From an uncultured Candidatus Saccharibacteria bacterium (GTDB lineage Bacteria > Patescibacteriota > Saccharimonadia > Saccharimonadales > JALRHH01), in the NCBI GenBank assembly GCA_964590315.1, contig CAZPVS010000001.1, forward strand, positions 42,926 to 106,925: 64,000 nt of DNA, given 5' to 3'. Shown here one piece after another: positions 3,336 through 23,782 of the stretch (its first letter is position 1; the number at the start of each line of letters is the position of its first letter). The translations under genes were made by a program, and so were the position numbers. The notes under the pieces are model-generated. The model did no database searches and was not told where the DNA came from. It worked only from the letters and a program-made list of their open reading frames with translations.

Positions 3336-3555
3336 ATAGACTCATCATAAAGCACCTGAGACCGATGGTGCAAATACTCGCCGCTGCAGGGATAGAGATA
3401 CTTATGGTGGGGGTGGTAGGAAAGTTCACGACTGCACCCAGGCTCGGAGTAAACTCCTGCGCTTGGGTTTGTCGACCGAACCTCGGCTACGCCGTCCGGT
3501 TTGACTCCTGCCCACCTCATAGAAAAAGCCCCAGCCAAGGCTGAGACTTATTCTA

Positions 3556-3775
3556 TGGTGGCTTTGTATTCCAAAGCTCGAACCTATTTTAACACAAGAA
3601 ACTGATGTGAGCCGCGCCGCCTGCGCGGGCAAGCCCGCGCTCGCCCCACCAGAAAACACCCTTTACAACTAAAAAGAAATCTAGGCGGGGAAATCAAAAA
3701 AATAGGCAAAGGGTTTTTCTGGTGGTGGCGTGTCGCTGCAATCAGTGGGAGTAAGGAGTTTTTAGGGTTGGGAGG
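3556..3775. repeat. R1a: 220-bp copy of a perfect inverted repeat (partner at 7361-7580)
   Basis: Reverse-complementing 7361-7580 by hand gives an identical string. It starts with tggtgg plus a tRNA 3'-end-like stretch (..cgaacc) and contains the GC hairpin gcgcgggc-aa-gcccgcgc. Confidence 0.85.
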
Positions 3776-3777
3776 TC

Positions 3778-4323
3778 TTACGGCTCATTAAAACTAGAAA
3801 CGTCTACTGGTTCGTAGCCATATTTATCACGTAATATAGCGAATAGCTCTTCATGTTTCAGACCCGAAAGAATACCACCAGCGATTGCATCTTCCAGCGT
3901 GACGTCAGCCGAACAGAAGCTGGGCTGACCAAATTTTTCTTGGTCGTCTGTATTTGCAAACTCAAAGTCCACTAGTACAAGACCGGCGTGCTCCCCGCCG
4001 AATACGTCCAGCTCACCTTCGAAGCCCTCGTACGTCAATGGCACGCGCAATTTTTCAATCCTACGCGTAGAAGCACCCAAGAGTGCATCGAATTCTTCTT
4101 TTGTCAGCCCGATAGTTTCCTCTAGCTGTTGAGACGGATCGTTATCAACAGGTGTTTTTTTGGTGATCTCATACGTATTGCCTTTTTGACGCAGACGCAG
4201 CTTTGGGTGGTCTGATACCTCTGGTATATAAGCATCAATCATACGTGTCGGTTCACCAGATATATACTGCGTGGGTATCTCTGGGCACAAATACGTTTTT
4301 TCAAATTCCATAGAACTAGCCAT
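3778..4323 (-). CDS. CYTH-domain protein (triphosphate tunnel metalloenzyme family)
   Basis: The N-terminal MEFEKTYL start and the overall ~180-aa acidic pattern are typical of the CYTH/CyaB-like fold. The stop lies 2 bp from R1a. Confidence 0.55.
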   Translation of the reverse strand: MASSMEFEKTYLCPEIPTQYISGEPTRMIDAYIPEVSDHPKLRLRQKGNTYEITKKTPVDNDPSQQLEETIGLTKEEFDALLGASTRRIEKLRVPLTYEGFEGELDVFGGEHAGLVLVDFEFANTDDQEKFGQPSFCSADVTLEDAIAGGILSGLKHEELFAILRDKYGYEPVDVSSFNEP

Positions 4324-4425
4324 GATTATAAAAAATCTCCTTTGTTATATTACTTCTTTCATACGGATTTATAATCTATATTGTATCATATTTACCCCTG
4401 TAATGAGATGAGGTATAGTGAATCC

Positions 4426-5484
4426 ATGAAGAATCTTAAAGTTATTGTGGTTGGCATTGGCAAACAGGCCTCAGAAGATCATATCCCTGCATTACTGGCG
4501 TCTGCTAGCTATGAGCTAGTAGGTCTCATCGAAAAAGATACCAACAAACATCACGAGATAAAGAGACAATATGGCGTTGCTGTGCATGCATCAATCGAGG
4601 AAGCTATCGCCACAGATACGCCCGATATTGCTGTCCTGACTCTGCCGCACAGTGAATACCGACATGCGATAGAGCTACTCGCCGCAAAAGGCGTTCACAT
4701 CATCAAAGAAAAGCCATTTGCTGTCAGCCTCGACGAAGCGATACTATATCAACGCTTGATGGAGAAGTATGGCGTCAGTATTCATGTCACGTTGCAACGA
4801 CGCTTCAACCCAATATTCACCAGCGTGCCTCAGCTGATACGTTCGATAGGCAAAGTCTTTGCTATTGAGGGTAAATATACGTTCAATATCGGCCATTTGG
4901 ATGAAGGGTGGCGCGCAAACTCTTACCAGTCAGGTGGCGGTGCACTCATTGACATGGGATACCACATCGTGGATCTACTAGTCTGGTATTTTGATTTGCC
5001 GAGTTATATCACAGCATCGACTGCTGATGGTAATCGAGAAGGTCAAAAATATGATGTCGAAGACACTGTATATCTTAATTTTCGATATGGAGAAGATGAT
5101 GGAGATTCGATGCTAGGCAATGTCATAGTGAGTCGAGTATTTCCCGAGAAGCAAGAATATTTGCATATGTATGGCACGCGAGGTAGTGTGCGCGTAGAAC
5201 GTGGACGAGTTGAACGTTTTGATATCAATGGTGAACCAGTCGAATCACTTGTACGAGATGGGCAGTGGCCATCCGCACTAGTTGAGCAATACGAAGTCTT
5301 CGCGTATGAGATTACCCACGACAAGGATAGTCGTGCAAACGGGAGAGTGGTGACGTTACACGACCACCTAAAGCATATGGCAATCGTAGAAGCCAGCTAT
5401 CAATCTGCCAGAAGTAAATCAACCACCAACGTGCAAAGCATCTACAATGAACTAGTACGGCAACTACAGGAAAGGAATGAATAA
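4426..5484 (+). CDS. Gfo/Idh/MocA family NAD(P)-dependent oxidoreductase
   Basis: N-terminal Rossmann motif VIVVGIGKQASEDHIPAL. The track start at 4381 is TTG; the ATG at 4426 has a gagg RBS. Confidence 0.7.
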   Translation: MKNLKVIVVGIGKQASEDHIPALLASASYELVGLIEKDTNKHHEIKRQYGVAVHASIEEAIATDTPDIAVLTLPHSEYRHAIELLAAKGVHIIKEKPFAVSLDEAILYQRLMEKYGVSIHVTLQRRFNPIFTSVPQLIRSIGKVFAIEGKYTFNIGHLDEGWRANSYQSGGGALIDMGYHIVDLLVWYFDLPSYITASTADGNREGQKYDVEDTVYLNFRYGEDDGDSMLGNVIVSRVFPEKQEYLHMYGTRGSVRVERGRVERFDINGEPVESLVRDGQWPSALVEQYEVFAYEITHDKDSRANGRVVTLHDHLKHMAIVEASYQSARSKSTTNVQSIYNELVRQLQERNE

Positions 5485-5486
5485 GC

Positions 5487-6719
5487 ATGAACTTAGCGAT
5501 TAATGGAGGTGTCCCTGTGTCTGCTGCTCCCCTGTACTTTGACTGGCCGATTATCAACGAGTCTGTTGGACAAGCAATCATCACGCAGCTCCACGAGAGT
5601 ATATCGATTTACGATGACTCAGGCATCTTTCAACAATTTGAGACTGAATTTGCAGAATATCATCATATGCCACATGCACTGCTTGTTAACTCTGGAACAT
5701 CGGGTCTACAAAGTGCGTACTACAGTATGATGTTGCAGCCAGGCGATGAAGTAATATGTCCAGTATACACATTCCACGCTACAGTCAGTCCGATGATGCA
5801 TTTTGGTCTCGTACCTACCATGGTTGACTGCGATATGTATGGACAAATTGATCCTGCGCTTATAGAAAAAGCCATCACTGATAAAACCAAGGCGGTTATT
5901 ATCACGCACATGTGGGGCTATGCCGTCGATATCGAGAGAGTTCGTGAAATTTGCGACAGACACAGCCTGCTCCTTATCGAAGATTGCTCTCATGCGCATG
6001 GTGCAACATTCGGTGGCCAGCCTCTTGGTTCGTTTGGTGATATATCCGTCTGGAGCTTACAGGGTCAGAAAATCATCACTGGCGGCGAAGGTGGTATGAT
6101 GCTATTTAAAAACAAGCAGCACTTCGAACGTGCTGTGCTGTACGGACACTACAATAAGCGCTGCAAACAGCAAGTTGAAGATGATTCGTTGAAAGCGTAT
6201 GCGCTGACAGGTGCTGGCCTAAAGCTGCGAGCAAGTACATTAAATGTCGCGATGGCACGGCATTATTTCAATCAAATTACTACAATCAACACCGAAAAAT
6301 CCCAAAATGCGGAGTGTTTTAGTCGTGGCATTCAATTGATTGACGGCATTCAAGTTCTTGGGCCACGACCTCATTCAACCAATAGCTGGTACGCACAAAA
6401 TATTATGTACGATGAGGCGGTCGTTGGTGTACCGCGCGAGCGGTTCGTCGCCGCACTCCATGCTGAGGGTCTTGTGGAAGCCGATATTCCTGACTCAACT
6501 GGACCAATTCACCGCGAGCCTTTGTTCAATGAGCCGCACGTTGTTTTCCCATACTTATATAATTCGTCACTTCACAACAAGGATCGTACATTTGAACGTG
6601 CGGAATCTTTTTATAGTCGGATCATCAAACTACCCGTCTGGACAGCGACTGACAATGCCACTGATCGATATATAGAGGGATTCAACAAGGTTATCGCCAA
6701 TATTCATGAGTTACAATAA
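5487..6719 (+). CDS. DegT/DnrJ/EryC1/StrS family sugar aminotransferase (PLP-dependent)
   Basis: Fold-type I aminotransferase blocks (IITHMWGY, DCSHAHGAT, LQGQKIITGGEGGM) match the DegT family. Translationally coupled to the neighbouring genes. Confidence 0.8.
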   Translation: MNLAINGGVPVSAAPLYFDWPIINESVGQAIITQLHESISIYDDSGIFQQFETEFAEYHHMPHALLVNSGTSGLQSAYYSMMLQPGDEVICPVYTFHATVSPMMHFGLVPTMVDCDMYGQIDPALIEKAITDKTKAVIITHMWGYAVDIERVREICDRHSLLLIEDCSHAHGATFGGQPLGSFGDISVWSLQGQKIITGGEGGMMLFKNKQHFERAVLYGHYNKRCKQQVEDDSLKAYALTGAGLKLRASTLNVAMARHYFNQITTINTEKSQNAECFSRGIQLIDGIQVLGPRPHSTNSWYAQNIMYDEAVVGVPRERFVAALHAEGLVEADIPDSTGPIHREPLFNEPHVVFPYLYNSSLHNKDRTFERAESFYSRIIKLPVWTATDNATDRYIEGFNKVIANIHELQ

Positions 6720-7374
6720 AGAGGGTTTACTAGTATCATTTGAAGGTCAAGACGGATCCGGTAAATCAACCTTACTTGAGCTGGTCGGTGCCGCACTAGA
6801 AGAGAATGGGTACGCGGTAGAGATTGTGCCTGAGTTTTCAGAGCGAGTAATTGGCTCCTACCTCGTCAATCAACTCACTGAAAACAAGTTCTTGCGCATG
6901 AATCGTGATGGTACGAGCGCCTTGACAGAGACATTGTATATCGTTGCTGACCTTTACTCGCAAGATGAGTTTGATATCAAGCCAGCGCTTGCTCAAGGAA
7001 AAATCGTCTTAAAGGAGAGGCACCTTGATTCGATATTCGCCTGCCAAATTCCAAAAATACTTGCAGACTATCCTGATAGAAGAGAGGGTGAACTAACAGG
7101 GTGGCTTGACAGTCTTTGTAGTAGTCTAAAAGAGCCTGACTTGACAGTATTTCTTGATGTTCCCGAAATTGAGTTACGCAATCGAATAGTCGGTAGAGGT
7201 GAAGCTATCAGCGAGAGCGATGTCACCGTATTCAAGTCAAGACAGGCTATATATGACCGAATTGCAGCCACTGGAATTAAACGATGGATGAGAGCAGATA
7301 ATCGGCATAGCCCCGACCGAACAGCAGAAGTCATTATTAGAAAAGTAGAAGAAATCCTTTCCTCCCAACCCTAA
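6706..7374 (+). CDS. thymidylate-kinase-like P-loop nucleotide kinase
   Basis: VSFEGQDGSGKST matches the Tmk P-loop IxxEGxDGxGKsT. The last four codons and stop (SSQP*) lie inside repeat R1b. Confidence 0.6.
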   Translation: MSYNKEGLLVSFEGQDGSGKSTLLELVGAALEENGYAVEIVPEFSERVIGSYLVNQLTENKFLRMNRDGTSALTETLYIVADLYSQDEFDIKPALAQGKIVLKERHLDSIFACQIPKILADYPDRREGELTGWLDSLCSSLKEPDLTVFLDVPEIELRNRIVGRGEAISESDVTVFKSRQAIYDRIAATGIKRWMRADNRHSPDRTAEVIIRKVEEILSSQP

Positions 7375-7580
7375 AAACTCCTTACTCCCACTGATTGCAG
7401 CGACACGCCACCACCAGAAAAACCCTTTGCCTATTTTTTTGATTTCCCCGCCTAGATTTCTTTTTAGTTGTAAAGGGTGTTTTCTGGTGGGGCGAGCGCG
7501 GGCTTGCCCGCGCAGGCGGCGCGGCTCACATCAGTTTCTTGTGTTAAAATAGGTTCGAGCTTTGGAATACAAAGCCACCA
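7361..7580. repeat. R1b: inverted copy of R1a
   Basis: Exact reverse complement of 3556-3775. It ends with ccacca, which is shared with the start of R2b. Confidence 0.85.
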
Positions 7581-7680
7581 AAATGGAACTTTCTGAGATT
7601 TGGTCGCCCGAATGGGCGGCTTTTTCTCTGGCCGCGCGCAGCGCGAGCCAGCTGTTTGCTTGGGGGGAATTGGGAAATTG
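7575..7680. repeat. R2b: 106-bp inverted copy of the tRNA 3' flank (partner at 9363-9468)
   Basis: Exact reverse complement of 9363-9468 by hand comparison. Confidence 0.8.
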
Positions 7681-7712
7681 ACGCGCCACAGGTGGCGCGT
7701 ATTTTTGTTTTG
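7681..7712 (+). terminator. rho-independent terminator after the cassette operon
   Basis: Palindrome acgcgccac-ag-gtggcgcgt followed by atttttgttttg. Confidence 0.5.
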
Positions 7713-7751
7713 TAAGTCGGCATAGCCGACACGCTCCGCGTCTTCGCTTCG

Positions 7752-7760
7752 TGATATAAT
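7752..7760 (+). promoter_or_regulatory. extended -10 promoter (TGaTATAAT) upstream of the recombinase gene
   Basis: tgatataat sequence. It lies ~135 nt upstream of the ATG at 7896. Confidence 0.4.
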
Positions 7761-7768
7761 GATAAGTG

Positions 7769-7854
7769 CAATACAAATCAATCGGCAAAACTTTTCTATT
7801 TGAGAACTCAAATAGCCGTTTCGCACAAGTTAGGTTTTGCCTGATTTGTATTGC
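7769..7854 (+). promoter_or_regulatory. nested inverted repeats in the recombinase leader; candidate operator, att-like site or structured 5' UTR
   Basis: gcaatacaaatca..gcaaaac pairs with gttttgc..tgatttgtattgc. An inner palindrome ctatttgag-aa-ctcaaatag is enclosed. Confidence 0.4.
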
Positions 7855-7895
7855 AGCGAAGCGGCTTTTTGAGTGCAAGTGGAAAGGTGGCGTAT

Positions 7896-9506
7896 ATGTT
7901 CCCAAAACTCATATATTTCTTGTATGTCCGTAAGAGTACCGATGTAGAGGACAAACAAGTGTTATCTATTGCGGCGCAAATTGCCGAACTCAAAGAGTTC
8001 GCCGCTCGCATGGGCATATACATCGTCGAGGCCATCATAGAAAAGCAGACAGCCAAAAAGCCAGGACGAAAAAAGTTTAACAAAATGCTGGAGCGCATAG
8101 AAAACGGCGAAGCTAACGGGATTTTAGCGTGGATGCCTGATCGACTGTCGCGCAATTCGATAGATAGCGGCAAGATTATTTATATGCTCGACGAGCATGT
8201 TTTACTCGACTTAAAGTTTCCGCATTTCTGGTTTGAGAATACGCCACAAGGAAAATACATGCTGGCTAATGAGTTCAATTCGTCCAAGCAATACGTGGAC
8301 AATTTGTCGGTAAACACCAAGCGAGGGCTACGCCAAAAGGTGCGCGAGGGCTATTACCCAAGTCGTGCGCCGATTGGCTATTATAACGACATCAAGACCA
8401 AGACGGCAAAAGTGGACAAACGGCATGCGCCGATTGTCCGTCAAGCGTTCGAATTGTACGCTGGCGGCGATAAACGATTAGACGAAATCGCGGACTTTCT
8501 GTATGCCAATGGCATACAGACACGCAGCGGTAAAGTGCGCGGCAAGAAAACGACAGGCAAAAAGCCGTATCATAAAAATCGTATCAAGCGTATGCTGACA
8601 AATCCGTTTTATTATGGACATTTTTGCTATCTCGGCGAAATCCATGAGGGCAACCATAAAGCTATTGTCTCGAAACGGCTTTTTGACCAAGTGCAAACGG
8701 TGCTAGAGCGTCGCGGCAAGCCGCGCCACAAGGCGAAGAATGAGCCAAAACCGCTCTGCGGTTTGGTATATTGCTCGTGCGGCATGATGTTCACCTCAGA
8801 ACGTCAGACAAAACGACAGAAAAATGGCAATGTGCATATCTATGATTATTATCGTTGCACGCGCAAGAGCAAGACAGTTGTTTGTCGTGAGCCACATATT
8901 CGCGCCGAAGAGCTGGACAAACAACTGTCTGCGTTACTGGCTGGCTTTTCTTTACCCATTGCGTGGGCGGACAAACTGCGCGAGCTAATGCGCAAGGACG
9001 AGATGAGTGAAAAGGTGGACTATGAACGTATTATCGGGAATGATAAAGACAAAATCGCGCAGTTGTCTGAGAAAATGCAGCGATTGCTTGATGGCTACCT
9101 AGACGGCGACATTGAGCGCGAATTATACCAAGACAAACGCGCGGAATTACTTGGACAGAAGAAACGGCTGGAAGAAAAAATTGAGCAAGCGACGGTGGGC
9201 GTTTTGACGTGGGTCGAACCGATGAATACATGGCTTGAGCGAGCCGTTTCTATCTGTAAAATCGCAAAGAGTGATGACTTACTCGCCAAAAAGTCGCTTT
9301 GCCTCGAAATCTTCGGGTCGAACCTAAAAATGCAAAACAAAAATGTCGTCGCACGCGACGACCAATTTCCCAATTCCCCCCAAGCAAACAGCTGGCTCGC
9401 GCTGCGCGCGGCCAGAGAAAAAGCCGCCCATTCGGGCGACCAAATCTCAGAAAGTTCCATTTTGGTGGGGGTGGTAGGAATCGAACCTACTACCAAGTGG
9501 TTATGA
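7896..9506 (+). CDS. large serine recombinase (resolvase catalytic domain + recombinase domain + zinc ribbon + coiled coil)
   Basis: YVRKSTDVED (Ser nucleophile) and LAWMPDRLSRN resolvase motifs. Zinc ribbon CGLVYCSCG..YYRCTRK..C. Long coiled coil. RBS ggaaaggtgg before the ATG at 7896; the track start 7851 is TTG. The last ~48 codons run through repeat R2a and antisense into the tRNA. Confidence 0.85.
   Translation: MFPKLIYFLYVRKSTDVEDKQVLSIAAQIAELKEFAARMGIYIVEAIIEKQTAKKPGRKKFNKMLERIENGEANGILAWMPDRLSRNSIDSGKIIYMLDEHVLLDLKFPHFWFENTPQGKYMLANEFNSSKQYVDNLSVNTKRGLRQKVREGYYPSRAPIGYYNDIKTKTAKVDKRHAPIVRQAFELYAGGDKRLDEIADFLYANGIQTRSGKVRGKKTTGKKPYHKNRIKRMLTNPFYYGHFCYLGEIHEGNHKAIVSKRLFDQVQTVLERRGKPRHKAKNEPKPLCGLVYCSCGMMFTSERQTKRQKNGNVHIYDYYRCTRKSKTVVCREPHIRAEELDKQLSALLAGFSLPIAWADKLRELMRKDEMSEKVDYERIIGNDKDKIAQLSEKMQRLLDGYLDGDIERELYQDKRAELLGQKKRLEEKIEQATVGVLTWVEPMNTWLERAVSICKIAKSDDLLAKKSLCLEIFGSNLKMQNKNVVARDDQFPNSPQANSWLALRAAREKAAHSGDQISESSILVGVVGIEPTTKWL
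9363..9468. repeat. R2a: native 3' flank of tRNA(CAU), including its CCA end
   Basis: Inverted partner of 7575-7680. Ends at tggtgg, which is the reverse complement of the tRNA ACCACCA terminus. Confidence 0.8.
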
Positions 9507-9538
9507 GCCGCCTGCTCTAACCGATGAGCTACACCCCC
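9463..9538 (-). tRNA. tRNA with CAU anticodon (elongator Met or lysidine-modified Ile2)
   Basis: Reverse complement GGGGGTGTAGCTCATCGGTTAGAGCAGGCGGCTCATAACCACTTGGTAGTAGGTTCGATTCCTACCACCCCCACCA. Cloverleaf has a 7-bp acceptor stem and a GTAGG/CCTAC T-stem, with one mismatch in the anticodon stem. It is close to E. coli tRNA-Ile2. Confidence 0.8.
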
Positions 9539-9613
9539 TCGATTAGAAACTTAATCGTTTCTGATAGTATTGTAACAGAGGAGAGTATAGCATTTAATGT
9601 ATAATTAACTCCA

Positions 9614-10066
9614 GTGATGATAGAAAAAATCAAAAAATATCAGCATTCAACGCTCGTACAGCAATTTCGAGACATTCGGTTTGTCGGCTTCGTGGTCTTT
9701 GGCATCCTTGTTTTGTTGGTGAGCTGGAGCGGTGTTTCGGTAATTGAGACGAATTATGAGCTCCAGAAGCAAGTTTCACAGCTTGAGCAAGAGATTGATG
9801 TTGCAGAACTTGAGAACAACAACCTTCGTTTGCAAAACGAATACTACAACAGCACACAATACCTGGAGTTGACCGCGCGGCGGCAATTTGGGAAAGGCCT
9901 ACCAGGAGAAACATTACTGTTGGTGCCCGATACGGTCGCGCTTAAATACACCAAGGACATATCCAAAGCAGTTGAAGAAAGCACACGTGAGCCACTACTC
10001 ACCAAGCCGCGATATCAGCAGAATCTTGAGGCTTGGATAGACTTCTTTACGCACCGTGATAGCTAA
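9614..10066 (+). CDS. septum formation initiator family protein (FtsB/DivIC-like)
   Basis: Single N-terminal TM helix followed by a coiled coil (ELQKQVSQLEQEIDVAELENNNLRLQNEY). Confidence 0.55.
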   Translation: MMIEKIKKYQHSTLVQQFRDIRFVGFVVFGILVLLVSWSGVSVIETNYELQKQVSQLEQEIDVAELENNNLRLQNEYYNSTQYLELTARRQFGKGLPGETLLLVPDTVALKYTKDISKAVEESTREPLLTKPRYQQNLEAWIDFFTHRDS

Positions 10067-10148
10067 GATTGACATAAGTACCTCTGTTTGATACTATATG
10101 TCAGCTAAACAGCGGCAGGAACGGGCGAATGTCCGTTCCTGCAACTAC

Positions 10149-10223
10149 CGCGGGGTAGAGCAGTGGCAGCTCGTGTGGCTCATAACCACAAGGTCGCAGG
10201 TTCGAGTCCTGCCCCCGCTACCA
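10149..10223 (+). tRNA. tRNA-Met (CAU), initiator-like
   Basis: CGCGGGGTAGAGCAGTGGCAGCTCGTGTGGCTCATAACCACAAGGTCGCAGGTTCGAGTCCTGCCCCCGCTACCA. Near-identical in layout to E. coli tRNA-fMet, including the unpaired 1:72 position (C:U). Confidence 0.85.
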
Positions 10224-10226
10224 TTT

Positions 10227-11069
10227 CTATGTAACATAGAAATTACTAGAACCGTTACGCGGTTCTTTTAATTTCAGAGATTCTAGCAATTTAGATTTAA
10301 CAACTTTGTTACTAAAAATAACTAGGTCATCTTCTAACTTAATGTCATGACCGTCTAGGTTATACGCGACACCACCAGCTTCTTGAATTATTAGTAAGCC
10401 TGCGGCTATGTCGTATTTTTGAGCAATACCACTAATCAAAAACTCAACTGCACCTTCTGCTACTGCCGGCAAGTCAAATACTGCAACACCAAAAACACGA
10501 ATCATATTTATTTGGTCTGCCAGTTTGAGCATAAGCTCTGTGCTTTTATTTGTTGATTTACCAACTTTGGCATCAAAGATTCCAATTGCGTCATTGAGGT
10601 CTCGCTCAGATACATTCAAATTACTTTTCTCGCCTGTTAAATTATTTCTATACTGGGCACCTTCACCTTTTGTGGCAGTATAAATCTCTTGGTTAAGGGG
10701 GCGATGGATTAATCCATAGATTGGAATGCCGTCCTTAACGATTGCTAGCTGAAAGCCGCATAGTGGAAGCCCTCTGATATAATTATTGGTACCATCAATA
10801 GGATCTACTACCCATTCAAAACCATTTTTTGATTCGACCCCTACATTTTCTTCTCCATAGAAACCATCGTCTGTAAACTGTTGAAGAACAGTTTTGACCG
10901 CCATGGATTCTATGTTTTTATCAAGTTCCGTAGCATAATCATGTGCTTGCTTTTCTTCGAAACGCATTTTTTTGTGGAATAAATCAGAAATCAGTGAGCC
11001 AGCGTTGCTGGCAATATATTCAGCTACAGGAATACGTTTATTTAATTCTTGTTTTATGTCATCAGTCAT
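10227..11069 (-). CDS. inositol monophosphatase family protein (SuhB/CysQ-like)
   Basis: WVVDPIDGTNNYIRG metal-binding motif. AT-rich gene inside the island. Confidence 0.75.
   Translation of the reverse strand: MTDDIKQELNKRIPVAEYIASNAGSLISDLFHKKMRFEEKQAHDYATELDKNIESMAVKTVLQQFTDDGFYGEENVGVESKNGFEWVVDPIDGTNNYIRGLPLCGFQLAIVKDGIPIYGLIHRPLNQEIYTATKGEGAQYRNNLTGEKSNLNVSERDLNDAIGIFDAKVGKSTNKSTELMLKLADQINMIRVFGVAVFDLPAVAEGAVEFLISGIAQKYDIAAGLLIIQEAGGVAYNLDGHDIKLEDDLVIFSNKVVKSKLLESLKLKEPRNGSSNFYVT
10248..10270. terminator. hairpin terminator after tRNA-fMet
   Basis: agaaccg-ttac-gcggttct followed by tttt. Confidence 0.5.
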
Positions 11070-11177
11070 TCAATATATTTTACTCTATAATAGATGGTTC
11101 GAGTATTAACTGTTGGACCAAACTATACTGTTTTTAGTCATATCGTTATTCCAACGAAGTAATTCTAAAGAAATTGG

Positions 11178-11247
11178 GTTCCAATTCGAATGGACATACT
11201 CTACCAAGCATAAGCATTATGACCTCAGAGGAATCTGGGGTCTTTTA
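11178..11247 (+). promoter_or_regulatory. copy 1 of a conserved ~65-nt motif (guuccaauucg..cuaccaag..) ending in a terminator hairpin + U-run
   Basis: Aligns with the copies at 12236-12301 and 13765-13832. Hairpin is gaccucag/cuggggUc. A partial extra copy sits at 11141-11161. Confidence 0.5.
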
Positions 11248-11282
11248 CTTGATTAAACAATTTTTGGCTTATACTACTCTTC

Positions 11283-12152
11283 ATGTGGTTTATTTACGCC
11301 CTACTTGGAGCAATCGGTAAGTCTTACTCGGGATTTTTTAGGAAGAAAATCGCCAAAAGTGTCAGTGGCTCAATGTACATCTGGATTGGGTATACGTTAA
11401 TACTTGTTGTTATGACGCCCTTCATGGTTCCACAAGCTTCAGCTGTTATCGATTCGTTGGTGAAATACCCGCTTGTTGTATTTGGAGCTGCCTTCTCTTA
11501 CATGGTGGCTACTCAATTAAACCTTGAGGCTTTAAAGCGTGAGGACTTATCCTATACAGCACCTTTAAATGCTTTTGTACCTGTCTTCACACTCGCAATA
11601 GCCGTTCCTATTCTTGGTGAAACACCGCCCAGGTTTGGCTTACTTGGCATAGCAATCGTTGTAGCAGGCGCCTACATTGTTAGTATTAAGCCTGAACGAA
11701 TACATTGGTATGACCCCCTTAAGCGATTGGCTACCAGTACTGGGGCGCAGCTAACACTGGGTGTAGCACTTTGCTATGCAATCAACACAATTCTTATGAA
11801 GGTTCTAACAAATAACGACTTTAACGCTTTTGTAGTTTTATACGTAACCACGCTCGTTGGGTGGCTACTACTTATTAACGTACCTATATCTCGTAGAAAT
11901 GAGTTTAAGGAGATTAAAAGTTCTGACAGGTTCTCAGTCCTAGGTGGTAGTTTAGGCTCATTTGCTGGTAGCTTTTTCCATATTCTTGCGCTATCAAACA
12001 CATACACCAGTTATGCAACTGCAGTACGCCGTCTTGATTCTGTAATATCAGTTCTACTGGGCTGGCGCTTCTTAAAAGAGAAAAGTATTCGTGTTAAGTT
12101 AGTGGGCAGCATTGTTATGACCATCGGTGCTGCTGTAATGCTAGTTGCCTAG
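11283..12152 (+). CDS. EamA/DMT-superfamily transporter
   Basis: Ten TM helices with a duplicated EamA-domain pattern (GETPPRFGLLGIAIVVAGAYIV). Confidence 0.7.
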   Translation: MWFIYALLGAIGKSYSGFFRKKIAKSVSGSMYIWIGYTLILVVMTPFMVPQASAVIDSLVKYPLVVFGAAFSYMVATQLNLEALKREDLSYTAPLNAFVPVFTLAIAVPILGETPPRFGLLGIAIVVAGAYIVSIKPERIHWYDPLKRLATSTGAQLTLGVALCYAINTILMKVLTNNDFNAFVVLYVTTLVGWLLLINVPISRRNEFKEIKSSDRFSVLGGSLGSFAGSFFHILALSNTYTSYATAVRRLDSVISVLLGWRFLKEKSIRVKLVGSIVMTIGAAVMLVA

Positions 12153-12235
12153 TTGTTCTAGTCTGCTGCGGTAGAGTAACTTAGCCCTGTTCTCTCTAGA
12201 GAGTTGTATCCATCTACTTAGTTCCGTAAGGATAT

Positions 12236-12301
12236 CGTTCCAATTCGATTGTACTTGGGCTACCATAAGCACTTTGACCTCTATTAATCAGAGGTCTTTT
12301 A
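12236..12301 (+). promoter_or_regulatory. copy 2 of the conserved motif + terminator hairpin
   Basis: cguuccaauucgauuguacuugggcuaccauaagcac followed by the hairpin gaccucu-auuaauc-agagguc and UUUU. Confidence 0.5.
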
Positions 12302-12303
12302 TA

Positions 12304-12332
12304 TTGACAATTCGTATATTTTGTGCTAATAT
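12304..12332 (+). promoter_or_regulatory. sigma70-like promoter (TTGACA-17-TAATAT) for the 12339 gene
   Basis: Consensus -35 box, 17-nt spacer and -10 box immediately after copy 2. Confidence 0.45.
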
Positions 12333-12338
12333 ATAATT

Positions 12339-13664
12339 ATGGACCAAATACCTGATTCGGAATTAGTTTCATCCGCTCGTAGGCATGATGTCGAATCTAA
12401 AATATTTGATGGTAGCGCGAGTAAGGCTGAAGTCCGCGATTGGTATTTCTCTTTAGACCCCCTGAGGGACGACTACTATGCATCCCTTACAGAATCTTCT
12501 TTAGGTACAACTGAATCGGACCTAGTTCTTCATAACGTTGAGTATTCGCTCAGCCAGGTAGCATTGTATGGCACAGCTGCACAAATACTTTCGGATGATA
12601 AAATCGAACATACTAAGCTTAGTGTTCCAATTAATACCTCTCCTTTTGGTCGGCAAAAATCTGAAGACACTAAGCCTCAGTTCAAGCATGTAGAATACAG
12701 CCAATTCAGTATTACCAAGCTCAAAGATATTGAATCTATAAATGAGCTGAACATTGCTCAGGACTGTTTTTCTCGAGCAAGTCGATATTGTTTAGATGTA
12801 CTACGCGTACTAGAGAATAACGAATCCGAGAAGAAATTCGTAGACTCTTTATTCGAGCTACAACGTTACTATGATCGACAGTCTGTTTATGCAAATAAAA
12901 CCGTAACCAGCCTAGCAGCAGGGTGGTTATTAACTGGATCAGAAGAGCTCAGGCCTGAGCCTCATGTACTCGACTCGATTATAGATGCTCAAATGCAGTG
13001 GCTTGGAAGCCAATTTTATAACCTGGGCATCAATAAAGATTATTCATCCCTTAAACCGGCTTTCTCAAACACAATTGAGACGATTGAAGAGTTTATAATT
13101 AATCCGACGAAAAATGCGGGTCGTAAAACTGTAAAAGATCCAGCTATGAAGGGTTATTTGCATGAATTGCTTTGGATGCTCGACGCAAACTTCGTCTTAA
13201 GTAATAAATATGAAAATCTGGGACCATGTGTGGTCCCGGCTCCATTAGGTTTTGACCGTCCCGAAATCAATCATCCAGAGTTGAAACGAGGCTACGACAT
13301 GGTATTGGTAGGTCACCACGCAAGAATGCCGATACAGCTAAAATCTGGTGCATTTAGTGCAAGCCGACATAAGTATGATGAACGGATATATCTAGCACAG
13401 GAAACCAACTTCAAAGATGTGGATTTAAGAAGACTGTCATCGAGAATTAATGATTACAGAAAATGGATAGAGAGTGATTTCAATGATAGCTCTATGGCTG
13501 ATAAGATTTCATCCAGAATTTTAGCAACAGTACCTGAAGCCATTGTCGCCCTCGAAGAGTATGATGCTATTGGTCGGGTTGATGAGGCGGTAGTTAAACA
13601 ATTAGGGAAGCAAGGCGTTCAGTTCCTGTCTAACACTTACCCGATTTATAAGCCTAAGAAGTGA
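12339..13664 (+). CDS. hypothetical protein, 441 aa, no recognisable domain
   Basis: Long AT-rich ORF with its own promoter. Island cargo. Confidence 0.5.
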   Translation: MDQIPDSELVSSARRHDVESKIFDGSASKAEVRDWYFSLDPLRDDYYASLTESSLGTTESDLVLHNVEYSLSQVALYGTAAQILSDDKIEHTKLSVPINTSPFGRQKSEDTKPQFKHVEYSQFSITKLKDIESINELNIAQDCFSRASRYCLDVLRVLENNESEKKFVDSLFELQRYYDRQSVYANKTVTSLAAGWLLTGSEELRPEPHVLDSIIDAQMQWLGSQFYNLGINKDYSSLKPAFSNTIETIEEFIINPTKNAGRKTVKDPAMKGYLHELLWMLDANFVLSNKYENLGPCVVPAPLGFDRPEINHPELKRGYDMVLVGHHARMPIQLKSGAFSASRHKYDERIYLAQETNFKDVDLRRLSSRINDYRKWIESDFNDSSMADKISSRILATVPEAIVALEEYDAIGRVDEAVVKQLGKQGVQFLSNTYPIYKPKK

Positions 13665-13764
13665 GAATTAGTAACATTTTCATTCCTCTATCTCTCGGGT
13701 AGAGCAGCCCTCAGACCGTCTGCTTCAGAAAATTGTATCCACCTTACTATTTCTTTGCATATTT

Positions 13765-13832
13765 CGTTCCAATTCGGGCGTACCTGGGCTACCAAGAGAA
13801 ATTTGAAACCGTCCCATCTGGGGCGGTTTTTA
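13765..13832 (+). promoter_or_regulatory. copy 3 of the conserved motif + terminator hairpin
   Basis: cguuccaauucgggcguaccugggcuaccaagag followed by the hairpin ccguccc-aucu-ggggcgg and UUUUU. Confidence 0.5.
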
Positions 13833-13966
13833 ATTTCTCCTTGTATCGGCGCAAGCCCCTAACCTGCGTCCTGCCAGCTTCAGATGGCGAGGTCGCACGG
13901 TTCGTTCGTAACGAGCACGCGCAGGTGCTTGCACCGAGCATGCTCGGCAACGTGCCGCAGGCAGCC

Positions 13967-13982
13967 CCTGCCCCCGCTACCA
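13967..13982. repeat. 16-nt direct repeat of the tRNA-fMet 3' end (attR-like island boundary)
   Basis: cctgcccccgctacca is identical to the tRNA T-stem 3' half + acceptor + ACCA. A chance 16-mer match is very unlikely in 64 kb. Confidence 0.55.
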
Positions 13983-14124
13983 AGCAAAAAGAATAACCGG
14001 AAGTAGTCTTTCTTCGTGGTAGGGAACTGGTCGGTGAAGTAAGCCCCCACCCCCTAAACCCTGTACATCTACGACTACTTGTGTTTATTATTGAGCTATT
14101 ACATAAAAACGGGATTACCCTTAA

Positions 14125-14760
14125 ATGGCCAGTGCTGCAAAACTACATACCAGGATTAAGCGCTATTTCATATTTTTTTCTATCGTAGGACTGCTACTGT
14201 TGTCGCTCATAGTTCTGCTAACGGTGAATCTGGTGCGGCAACACGAGCTGGTGAGCAAATATGAGCTTCTAGAGAAGATTGATAATCAAGCGTGCCGCTA
14301 TCTTGACAGACAAGCAGGGGTGAACGGAGGATTCGATCTTGAAGCTGACTCGCCGCAGGATAAGCCTCGTCTGACATACTGGTGTCTGACCGGCGAGCGA
14401 GTGTTTGCCAGACAAGTGCAGGATAAGTTTGTGGATGAGTATGATTTTGGCGCCCGCGTGCTGTACTTTAGTTCCCGAGAGGAAGCAGAGAAACATGCGC
14501 AGCAGAGCCTGAGTCCTCTCCGAAACTGGGGAGTTGATGAAGAAGGCCAACGCAACGGTATGCCACAAACATCTCGGTTTACGTTCATTGTCAGCGATGT
14601 TGAGCATCCGTATTTTGACGCGTATACCGTCAAAGCAAACGCTGTATTACGGGTTAGCCTCCCGTGCGGCACCCCTGAAGAGCGGTATGATCTTGTGGCC
14701 TGTCAGGCCCAGGCTGACGCACTATTAAATAGGGAACTCAAGGGAATAAACGTCCTGTAG
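14125..14760 (+). CDS. hypothetical membrane-anchored protein
   Basis: N-terminal TM helix (FIFFSIVGLLLLSLIVLLTV), then a soluble domain with conserved Cys residues. No recognisable family. Confidence 0.45.
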   Translation: MASAAKLHTRIKRYFIFFSIVGLLLLSLIVLLTVNLVRQHELVSKYELLEKIDNQACRYLDRQAGVNGGFDLEADSPQDKPRLTYWCLTGERVFARQVQDKFVDEYDFGARVLYFSSREEAEKHAQQSLSPLRNWGVDEEGQRNGMPQTSRFTFIVSDVEHPYFDAYTVKANAVLRVSLPCGTPEERYDLVACQAQADALLNRELKGINVL

Positions 14761-14847
14761 AACAGAGGTGAATACAGGACAGTACTACTAATAGCATATG
14801 CTTAGTGGTATTGTAGATTTACTACTATTTAGTAAGAAGGAGTCGAA

Positions 14848-15417
14848 ATGTTAGCACGAATCATTGAAGAAGCAACGGATGCGGTAGCAGCAGCGGTGCG
14901 TGGTGTGGACAATATTCTCGATGCAGTGACAAATAGTGTTAAAGATCAGGTTATTAACGTCTTACAGGGTACCGGAGAGGTTGCAGGGGCTGGCGTAGAG
15001 GCAGTTGCTTCGGTGGCTAGTGGTGCTATCCGCGGCGCAGGCCAGGTCGGAACATCATTAACCGAGACAGTAGCTGGTACGATGAGTGGAATCGTGAAGG
15101 GTGTCAGCCAGTTGGGTGGTGATGTCATCGGTGCTATCCATGAAGGCGCAAAAGGCGTTGTAAGCGCCACGGCAGAAACAGGTGGCGACATTGGAACGGC
15201 TGCAGTATCTGCGGTGAGCGGAGCCATCAAAGCAGCAGGCGACGTAGGGGCAGACACTGCGGCGGCTGCGAAATCTGCGGTCGGTGGCGTGCTTGATGCG
15301 GCGACCAGTGTAGGTGGCAGCGCTGTAGACACAGTTCGCAAGGCGCTTCTCGGTGCAGCCGCACTCCCTCGGGATGTGATTGAATCCGCACTGAAGGGTA
15401 GCGACAAAGAACGCTAA
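14848..15417 (+). CDS. Gly/Ala/Val-rich protein built of ~11-residue periodic repeats
   Basis: At least 11 tandem 11-mers (e.g. SGAIRGAGQVG / SGAIKAAGDVG) with a charged N-terminus and C-terminus. Resembles amphipathic 11-mer-repeat proteins. Confidence 0.5.
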   Translation: MLARIIEEATDAVAAAVRGVDNILDAVTNSVKDQVINVLQGTGEVAGAGVEAVASVASGAIRGAGQVGTSLTETVAGTMSGIVKGVSQLGGDVIGAIHEGAKGVVSATAETGGDIGTAAVSAVSGAIKAAGDVGADTAAAAKSAVGGVLDAATSVGGSAVDTVRKALLGAAALPRDVIESALKGSDKER

Positions 15418-23668: not shown

Positions 23669-23782
23669 ACAATTCAGAACATTTTTGGTAGCGGCGACTA
23701 GGCTTGAACTAGTGACCTCAGGCTTATGAGTCCTGCGCTCTAACCAGCTGAGCTACGCCGCCCCAAAAATGTTCTGAATTGT
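23669..23782. repeat. 18-bp inverted repeats immediately flanking the tRNA-Met gene
   Basis: acaattcagaacattttt on one side and aaaaatgttctgaattgt on the other. Confidence 0.5.
23686..23762 (-). tRNA. tRNA-Met (CAU), elongator-like
   Basis: Reverse complement GGCGGCGTAGCTCAGCTGGTTAGAGCGCAGGACTCATAAGCCTGAGGTCACTAGTTCAAGCCTAGTCGCCGCTACCA. Closely resembles E. coli elongator tRNA-Met. Confidence 0.8.

Follow-up and report, generated by a model that had tools for sequence, protein, structure and literature searches.

The stretch analyzed here (the window) is 64 kb of contig CAZPVS010000001.1 from an uncultured Candidatus Saccharibacteria bacterium, and our subject is the AT-rich segment that begins immediately 3′ of an initiator-type tRNA-Met gene (tRNA-fMet) within it. 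ARAGORN and Rfam both recognized the tRNA, which, with its C1 opposite U72 and its A11:U24 pair, looks like an initiator. The GC content of positions 10200-13800 is 0.35-0.42, compared to 0.475 for the window as a whole, and this is the window's lowest-GC stretch. Three genes lie in the segment: one with a Pfam Inositol_P match on the minus strand (10227-11069), one with an EamA match on the plus strand (11283-12152), and an open reading frame (ORF) of 441 amino acids without any Pfam match. The last 16 nt of the tRNA, CCTGCCCCCGCTACCA, occur at exactly two sites in the 64 kb, 10208-10223 and 13967-13982, against a chance expectation of 0.03, and no third copy was found in the window even when 2 mismatches were allowed. 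Neither a recombinase ORF nor, specifically, a tyrosine-integrase ORF is present within 10224-13982. An earlier reading of this DNA (the original prediction) had described the same tRNA, composition, gene content, exact repeat and lack of an integrase, and had interpreted the two 16-mers as the attL and attR sites of a single island that was either decayed or mobilized in trans.

A repeat search, followed by an nhmmer profile, revealed that the segment also contains three direct copies of a repeat of ~110 nt, which we call R. With this profile no further copies were found elsewhere in the window. Every copy ends in ..CTACCA, as the tRNA does, and terminator hairpins are found 10-25 nt past each ACCA. 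The three R copies and the terminator that follows each of them argue that the segment is not one unit but three, each made of a trailer with its terminator, a gene and an R (Table 1). A terminator stands at the start of every one of these cassettes, and a promoter of its own was seen in at least one. The central copy, R-B, starts 3 nt past the stop codon of the EamA gene and shares 75-94% identity with its counterparts in over 100 other loci; a homologue of the EamA protein (61% amino acid identity) lies downstream of tRNA-fMet in one of the related loci (L171; loci are given by our L numbers). The trailer type of cassette 1 (TTTCTATGTAAC..) was also found after R copies in L246, L248 and L184, and its IMPase gene is inverted relative to R, as in 15% of cassettes. 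This ORF meets no stop codon before a point 3 nt from the tRNA. Its final ~15 codons run antisense through the trailer and its terminator hairpin (10227-10270) and lie past the end of the Pfam match (residue 265). The recombinase ORFs described below likewise read through trailers into tRNAs.

Table 1. Features of the tRNA-fMet array and of the neighboring island in the 64-kb window.
Feature	Position	Strand	Details
DivIC/FtsB-like gene	9614-10066	+	conserved chromosomal neighbor upstream of tRNA-fMet; anchor for comparisons
tRNA-fMet (initiator-type tRNA-Met, CAT)	10149-10223	+	75 nt; ARAGORN, Rfam
Predicted chromosomal attachment core			last 7-9 nt of tRNA-fMet (..CCGCTACCA)
Proximal 16-mer	10208-10223	+	T-stem 3′ strand, acceptor 3′ strand and ACCA
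Cassette 1	10224-11206		trailer, IMPase-family gene 10227-11069 (-), degenerate R-A
Cassette 1 trailer			two-way terminator hairpin 10248-10266, following tRNA-fMet
R-A	11096-11206	+	degenerate; ends ..ACTCTACCA; nhmmer E 3.4e-10
Cassette 2	11207-12265	+	trailer with terminator 11221-11242, EamA transporter gene 11283-12152, R-B
R-B	12155-12265	+	full-length; ends ..TTGGGCTACCA; nhmmer E 2.4e-28
Cassette 3	12266-13794	+	trailer with terminator 12276-12296, promoter, 441-aa gene 12339-13664, R-C
Consensus promoter	12304-12332		TTGACA-17-TAATAT, ahead of the 441-aa gene of cassette 3
R-C	13695-13794	+	ends ..CTGGGCTACCA; nhmmer E 1.8e-14
E unit	13795-13982	+	trailer starting AGAGAAATTTGAAACC, terminator 13805-13830, E body, distal 16-mer
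E body	13833-13966	+	GC-rich; nhmmer E profile, E 1.3e-16; homologous to L010, L223, L234
Distal 16-mer	13967-13982	+	exact copy of the last 16 nt of tRNA-fMet
tRNA-Met (76 nt)	9463-9538	-	
Mirror-image island	3405-9462	-	anchored on tRNA-Met (76 nt)
Order within the island (tRNA sense)			trailer, LSR, sugar-modification genes, R′-type arm (3556-3775), trailer, E′-like body, exact copy of the 16-mer of tRNA-Met (76 nt) (3405-3420)
Large serine recombinase (LSR) of the window	7851-9506	+	likely start 7896; ORF extends 44 nt antisense into tRNA-Met (76 nt)

R arrays are common at this site in other Saccharibacteria. Copies lie downstream of tRNA-fMet in L007 and L010, and a 28-nt pattern taken from R matched at least 120 metagenome stretches, many of them with several co-oriented copies; L180 has eight, with cassettes encoding an SDR, a kinase-like protein, and surface and membrane proteins. 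The nhmmer profile collected 231 copies from 126 loci, none of which had copies on both strands, and in all 37 loci holding both tRNA-fMet and R, every R copy was located downstream of the tRNA and on its strand. R-to-R intervals (n = 105) had a median of 950 bp and an interquartile range of 750-1317; the longest ORF covered a median of 85% of the gap and was co-oriented with R in 87 of 102 intervals. The 28-nt pattern had no match in viral contigs, and R had none in PLSDB plasmids or GenBank phages. A loose 14-base pattern did give 120 matches in viral contigs; these were all due to chance, none of them reaching ..GC.ACCA plus a terminator.

The only recurrent recombinases in the loci were large serine recombinases, whereas tblastn of XerD and IntI1 against the window and 134 loci at E≤0.1 gave no tyrosine recombinase. 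In L138 and L175 tRNA-fMet and its trailer are followed at once by the LSR gene, which is antisense to the tRNA and whose ORF extends 44 nt into it; in L217 and L253 an LSR in the same orientation heads the arrays. Five more loci, reached via the protein (L255-L259), have the order tRNA-fMet, trailer, LSR, cargo, R. The LSR of L175 has at least 349 homologues, the top 120 of which are 55-86% identical to it. About 105 of these 120 end in ..LVAGAGLEPATSWL, the tRNA-fMet 3′ end translated in antisense, while about 10 end in ..LVAQVHSNWN, which is antisense R and is the ending that had been predicted beforehand for R-trailer junctions. The two types of C-terminus part exactly at GCTACCA. Serine recombinases, one of which the original prediction had suggested as a mobilizing enzyme, are indeed the type of enzyme associated with such a site.

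Contigs in which R is joined to an LSR-type trailer (R|T_LSR) appear to be circles: all four independent ones have terminal overlaps and are circular by assembly signature. They measure 4.5-9.8 kb. L264 has a 30-nt terminal overlap, L268 and L269 have overlaps of 127 nt each, and L265-L267 are one element that three runs yielded as exact circular permutations of one another (8432 nt, 0 mismatches). Each circle has a full R that ends in G(G/T)CTACCA, with the LSR-type trailer immediately behind it. Neither a tRNA nor E was found on the circles, and their GC content is 36%, like that of the AT-rich island. The circular (L264-L269) and integrated (L138, L175, L255-L259) members of the LSR family alike have Resolvase, Recombinase and Zn-ribbon domains. 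As to cargo, the 9.8-kb L264 carries an NgoPII-type restriction enzyme, a DNA methylase and an HTH_17/MerR (excisionase-like) protein; the 8.4-kb L265 carries an FtsK/DUF87-like protein and DUF3761, together with two extra partial copies of the left part of R.

By sequence comparison, the circles and the chromosomal loci together show all four sites of one integration reaction. The attP site is R|T_LSR, as in the four circular contigs; attB is the tRNA followed by another trailer and E (tRNA|T_x-E), as in L223 and L010; and attL and attR are tRNA|T_LSR and R|T_x-E, respectively, as in L175, L138 and L255. All four switch at GCTACCA.

The same point emerged from comparison of array cassettes. 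Cassettes that are 99% identical in different contexts start and stop within GGGCTACCA or directly past ACCA; such boundaries were seen in the pairs L142/L249 (1040 nt), L205/L230 (1071 nt) and L189/L230, and one cassette stands behind R in L151 and behind a tRNA-type 16-mer in L205. At nucleotide 72 (GC[T/A]ACCA), tRNA and R carry identical bases in 45 of 47 de-duplicated copies (T-T in 23, A-A in 22, mismatched in 2), and the recombinase-anchored loci add four more matches, including a rare G allele in L257. The identity between the tRNA and the R units is 7 nt. The predicted working crossover is the last 7-9 nt, GCTACCA, and not the whole 16-mer. A few left-identical pairs that differ at single bases just after it had suggested a crossover in the near-palindrome TTCCAATTCGAA; we dropped this candidate in favor of GCTACCA because identity regularly runs to ACCA and the boundaries of the large shared cassettes fall there.

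What, then, is the distal 16-mer? We fetched 14 Saccharibacteria loci via the DivIC-like gene upstream of the tRNA; exact-sequence look-up of the DivIC protein and of the 211-aa flanking protein gave no record. In five of them (L006, L010, L012, L013 and L014) the tRNA-fMet 16-mer is repeated 153-196 nt downstream with no intervening gene, and this second copy shares the lineage-specific substitutions of its tRNA (CCTGT.., CCTGG.., CCTAG..). The spacer between the two is homologous to window positions 13833-13966, that is, to the final ~150 nt ahead of the distal 16-mer, a separate conserved element (E) of 60% GC. Among 46 tRNA-fMet loci, 21 have an exact second 16-mer, which is proximal and gene-free in 15 (offset 123-295); in five loci and the window it is distal, just past the last R. 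Gene-free tRNA-E-16mer arrangements with co-varying copies in ~15 loci argue that the 16-mer pair did not arise through this insertion. We read the distal copy as the end of E, and the window cassettes as sitting between tRNA-fMet and E. On composition, the original prediction needs one correction: the AT-rich part stops at ~13795-13830, short of the distal 16-mer. The DNA past 13982 is ordinary in composition (0.47-0.51); between the two 16-mers the average is 40%. Some arrays hold E in several copies, with three each in L205, L189 and L230. E could be a second landing site: in L010 a C-terminal LSR remnant, apparently of an element inserted at E, lies immediately past the E 16-mer, and arrays follow E in ~15 loci. 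It could equally be an arm of another element class or an RNA gene.

The explanation we favor, to which we give a probability of about three in four, is that the three cassettes of the AT-rich segment were acquired independently of one another and form an array belonging to a widespread LSR-driven system at the tRNA-fMet 3′ end. Small circular LSR elements would load genes onto this end, much as integrons collect cassettes. The LSR, which is tied to the exchange by its association with these sites and by the match at nucleotide 72, would catalyze it at a short core inside GCTACCA, either containing that nucleotide or next to it. Single-gene cassettes lacking a recombinase, such as the three in the window, would be mobilized in trans or be trimmed remnants of larger elements, and both the tRNA 3′ end and the 3′ end of E would serve as landing sites. 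Because no fMet-type LSR is present, the window array may be static, or it may depend on an enzyme encoded elsewhere. The core of the original prediction is preserved in this explanation, namely that the segment is foreign DNA placed at the tRNA-fMet 3′ end by site-specific recombination, with that end as the attachment core.

Several points weigh against it. The evidence for it is comparative sequence throughout. The R loci were gathered with a pattern derived from R and are not an unbiased sample, and many come from related organisms, which makes the match at nucleotide 72 partly phylogenetic. An LSR stands beside the array in only 2 of the 46 fetched tRNA-fMet loci, and no single-gene circular cassettes were found among the fetched contigs; that small cassettes move independently is therefore deduced solely from the boundaries they share. 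Around the putative crossover, attP shows weak dyad symmetry (11 of 26 positions). Classical LSRs carry out a single attP-attB recombination and do not return to attL, a point against repeated insertion at one tRNA. As to an empty site in relatives, no close relative was available, and the nearest ones by DivIC (70% identity) have no tRNA-fMet within 10 kb downstream of that gene.

A more far-reaching proposal is that the system is a functional analogue of the integron: an LSR, in most cases provided by small circles, would capture, excise and reshuffle single-gene cassettes, R would be the cassette site, E would be a decoy attB that co-evolves with the tRNA, and a parallel system with a recombinase subfamily of its own would operate on the neighboring elongator tRNA-Met. 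We offer this tentatively and would sooner bet against it than for it. If it were true, the decoy would let arrays grow without risk to the only initiator tRNA.

The single island of the original prediction would have arisen by one integration into the tRNA 3′ end, with the 16-mers as attL and attR and the integrase since lost. An exact 16-nt repeat does bound the region, the composition is atypical and an integrase is absent inside; a nested version is also conceivable, in which an outer E-type unit brought the 16-mer and the R cassettes were added inside it later. However, this is unlikely given that the segment contains three internal R repeats, each with a terminator and each closing its own cassette at GCTACCA, that the boundaries of shared cassettes fall at the GCTACCA of R ends and not just at the 16-mer, and that the homologues of the three genes differ in distribution. 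The empty site that it envisages, the tRNA joined directly to the sequence from 13983 onward, is not the cargo-free state of relatives either, which in ~15 loci is tRNA-trailer-E-16mer with the two 16-mers co-varying. The attL/attR assignment was right in taking the tRNA 3′ end as the core, but it is not supported for the distal copy, best read as part of E, or for the extent of the crossover.

It could also be speculated that R and E are RNA elements, such as tRNA-like 3′ untranslated regions, processing or stability modules or small RNAs, and that the arrays arose by local gene duplication or by selection for 3′ ends of this sort. R lies within a few nt of stop codons, shares the orientation of 85% of genes, and has the ACCA end of a mature tRNA before running into a terminator; it also contains a small CUCC-GNRA-GGAG hairpin with some compensatory change, and E is found between two terminators and has a covarying CGAACC..GGTTCG hairpin. 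Nevertheless, R is kept as blocks of sequence, and RNAalifold found no consensus fold in it beyond a 3-bp hairpin of -0.85 kcal/mol. Across 7000-15000, Rfam at E≤1 returned the two tRNAs and sub-threshold noise, with no match for R or E. Furthermore, R|T is the junction of circular recombinase elements, breakpoints fall at the end of R, and R is limited to one locus of the window. We therefore consider a purely RNA-based origin improbable, although an RNA role could exist alongside the DNA role, notably for E. Folding of R, as RNA or as a single-stranded DNA site, was rejected because RNAalifold and mutual information gave no consistent helices; a tRNA-like closing stem predicted by RNAfold in single R copies was not backed by covariation.

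That ordinary homologous recombination between the 110-nt repeats, instead of a site-specific enzyme, reshuffles the arrays, with the recombinase elements just sharing the hotspot, is very improbable: R copies are long enough for RecA at 75-94% identity and at least two hybrids break inside R or between R and E (L151/L205; L223 offset 2020), but most boundaries fall in a 7-9-nt window at the very end of R beside non-homologous trailers, the same point divides the tRNA-type from the R-type C-termini of 120 recombinase genes, and homologous exchange could not join R to the tRNA because they have only 7 nt in common. The hybrids do argue that homologous recombination contributes, though it is not the main pattern.

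Compared to known systems, the LSR-driven arrays described here most resemble three quite different ones. In the staphylococcal cassette chromosome (SCC), the Ccr large serine recombinases use an attB at the 3′ end of rlmH/orfX. Shared with SCC are an LSR with Resolvase, Recombinase and Zn-ribbon domains, which holds for the wider family but not inside the window's own array, integration at the 3′ end of a conserved gene, tandem accretion with short direct repeats, units without a recombinase that are presumed to move in trans, and circular excised forms. In contrast to SCC, the target is an initiator tRNA and not a protein gene, the host is a reduced-genome bacterium of the candidate phyla radiation (CPR), most units consist of one gene, measure ~1 kb and bring a terminator of their own, the units end in the conserved ~110-nt R, and an extra conserved element, E, duplicates the attB half-site.

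The likeness to integrons lies in one-directional arrays of ~1-kb single-ORF cassettes, a family-specific closing repeat and one fixed anchor; many arrays also lack a nearby recombinase, as in clusters of attC sites lacking integron-integrases (CALINs). On the other hand, the tblastn search gave no IntI-type tyrosine recombinase; R is conserved in sequence and does not form an attC-like folded palindrome, whereas attC is conserved in structure; the window cassettes each begin with a terminator, and one or more of them carry a promoter; and the anchor is a tRNA instead of attI with its promoter Pc.

Classical prophages and islands integrated in tRNA genes, and their sublocation at the 3′ end, were reportedly treated by Williams in 2002. 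Like them, the array is inserted at a tRNA 3′ end, is associated with a direct repeat of a tRNA 3′ segment and has an atypical composition. Unlike them, it has no tyrosine integrase, it consists of several nested units, and its repeat is also present in ~15 loci without cargo.

Another parallel is found in the tycheposons and tRNA-seeded genomic islands of Prochlorococcus; tycheposons have tyrosine recombinases (474 of 501) and ~40-nt partial-tRNA att sites, one of their targets being a tRNA-Met (bioRxiv 10.1101/2020.12.28.424599). Both involve a seed tRNA, transient integrative vectors and successive integrations that shift older material distally, as well as partial tRNA repeats and degenerated elements beside the tRNA (here GCTACCA-ended repeats, 16-mers and the LSR remnant of L010). 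The differences are that the recombinase here is an LSR and not a tRNA-specific tyrosine recombinase accompanied by a replication module, the tRNA identity of R units is 7 nt, the product is a regular cassette array, and the circles carry FtsK/DUF87-like, DUF3761, restriction-modification and HTH genes. The system thus lacks the defining features of integrons and of classical tyrosine-integrase islands, and is SCC-like, integron-like and tycheposon-like. Our literature searches for integron-like or serine-recombinase systems in Saccharibacteria found nothing relevant, nor did the system turn up in any of the annotated libraries that we searched.

With their tiny genomes, Saccharibacteria and other CPR bacteria rely on host bacteria, and how they gain accessory genes has been little described. 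Here, one fixed locus gathers surface proteins, transporters, kinases, restriction systems and orphan genes as ~1-kb units, and the 110-nt tag makes the accessory gene pool of R-carrying lineages searchable in metagenomes with a single profile. The arrays also add a natural LSR system whose attP is defined, whose core is very short and whose target is a tRNA. This is of practical interest because LSRs serve as genome-engineering tools. An LSR that builds arrays would be mechanistically unusual, since such enzymes are not known to re-use attL. For annotation, islands in such genomes described as a tRNA plus a direct repeat should be split into cassettes, and the repeat by itself is no marker of insertion limits.

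The 441-aa protein of cassette 3 had no match in Pfam or NCBIfam. Among 5.8 billion proteins it has only two close homologues, both encoded in the region downstream of a tRNA-fMet; in the comparison with the L260 copy, homology starts at the first base past ACCA. The wider family is uncharacterized, with ~120 remote representatives at 50% clustering, and none of the 10 representatives tested matched Pfam. Conserved residues are E276, D282, D306, D320 and Q333-x-K335. An AlphaFold2 model was confident (pLDDT 83.6), and its search against PDB and BFVD gave no significant structural neighbors. The protein may combine a new helical N-terminal domain with a PD-(D/E)xK-like domain at its C-terminus.

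On the other side of the DivIC gene, a second island is anchored on tRNA-Met (76 nt). The 16-mer of this tRNA, CCTACCACCCCCACCA, has one further copy, at 3405-3420, 6058 bp downstream in the sense of the tRNA, and ahead of that copy lie an E-like body (3415-3486), a terminator trailer and an R′-type arm ending ..CAAAGCCACCA. The cargo comprises thymidylate-kinase-like, DegT aminotransferase, GFO/IDH/MocA oxidoreductase and CYTH-like genes. The match between these parts and those of the fMet array argues that the window contains a pair of islands, placed back to back and built alike, of which the left one has its own LSR. This LSR has all three of the Resolvase, Recombinase and Zn-ribbon domains; its best scores, against the XisF and CcrB/A/C models, are below their cut-offs, and it is 26-34% identical to the fMet-type family. 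It is the serine recombinase ~1 kb upstream that the original prediction had tied to the AT-rich segment. From its position and divergence, it is to all appearances the integrase of the tRNA-Met (76 nt) island and lies outside the fMet array, although its action in trans on that array is possible.

The E bodies of the two tRNAs in the window (13833-13966 and 3415-3486) are homologous, yet each ends in the 16-mer of its own tRNA. Two perfect inverted repeats, both 100% complementary, were also observed in the left island. One of 220 nt (3556-3775/7361-7580) forms two outward-facing R′ arms around the cargo genes; the other, of 106 nt (7575-7680/9363-9468), flanks the LSR gene and consists of CCACCA and trailer, including the last 34 LSR codons. 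Both could be recombinase-driven inversions or misassembly at repeats.

The order of tRNAs around the two islands is conserved in many loci: tRNA-Met (76 nt, minus strand), DivIC, tRNA-fMet (plus strand), a variable region and a third CAT tRNA (77 nt, minus strand). In the window the three CAT tRNAs are located at 9463-9538, 10149-10223 and 23686-23762, with the variable array between the second and the third. The third is probably tRNA-Ile2, because a TilS-like gene (PF01171) adjoins it in related loci.

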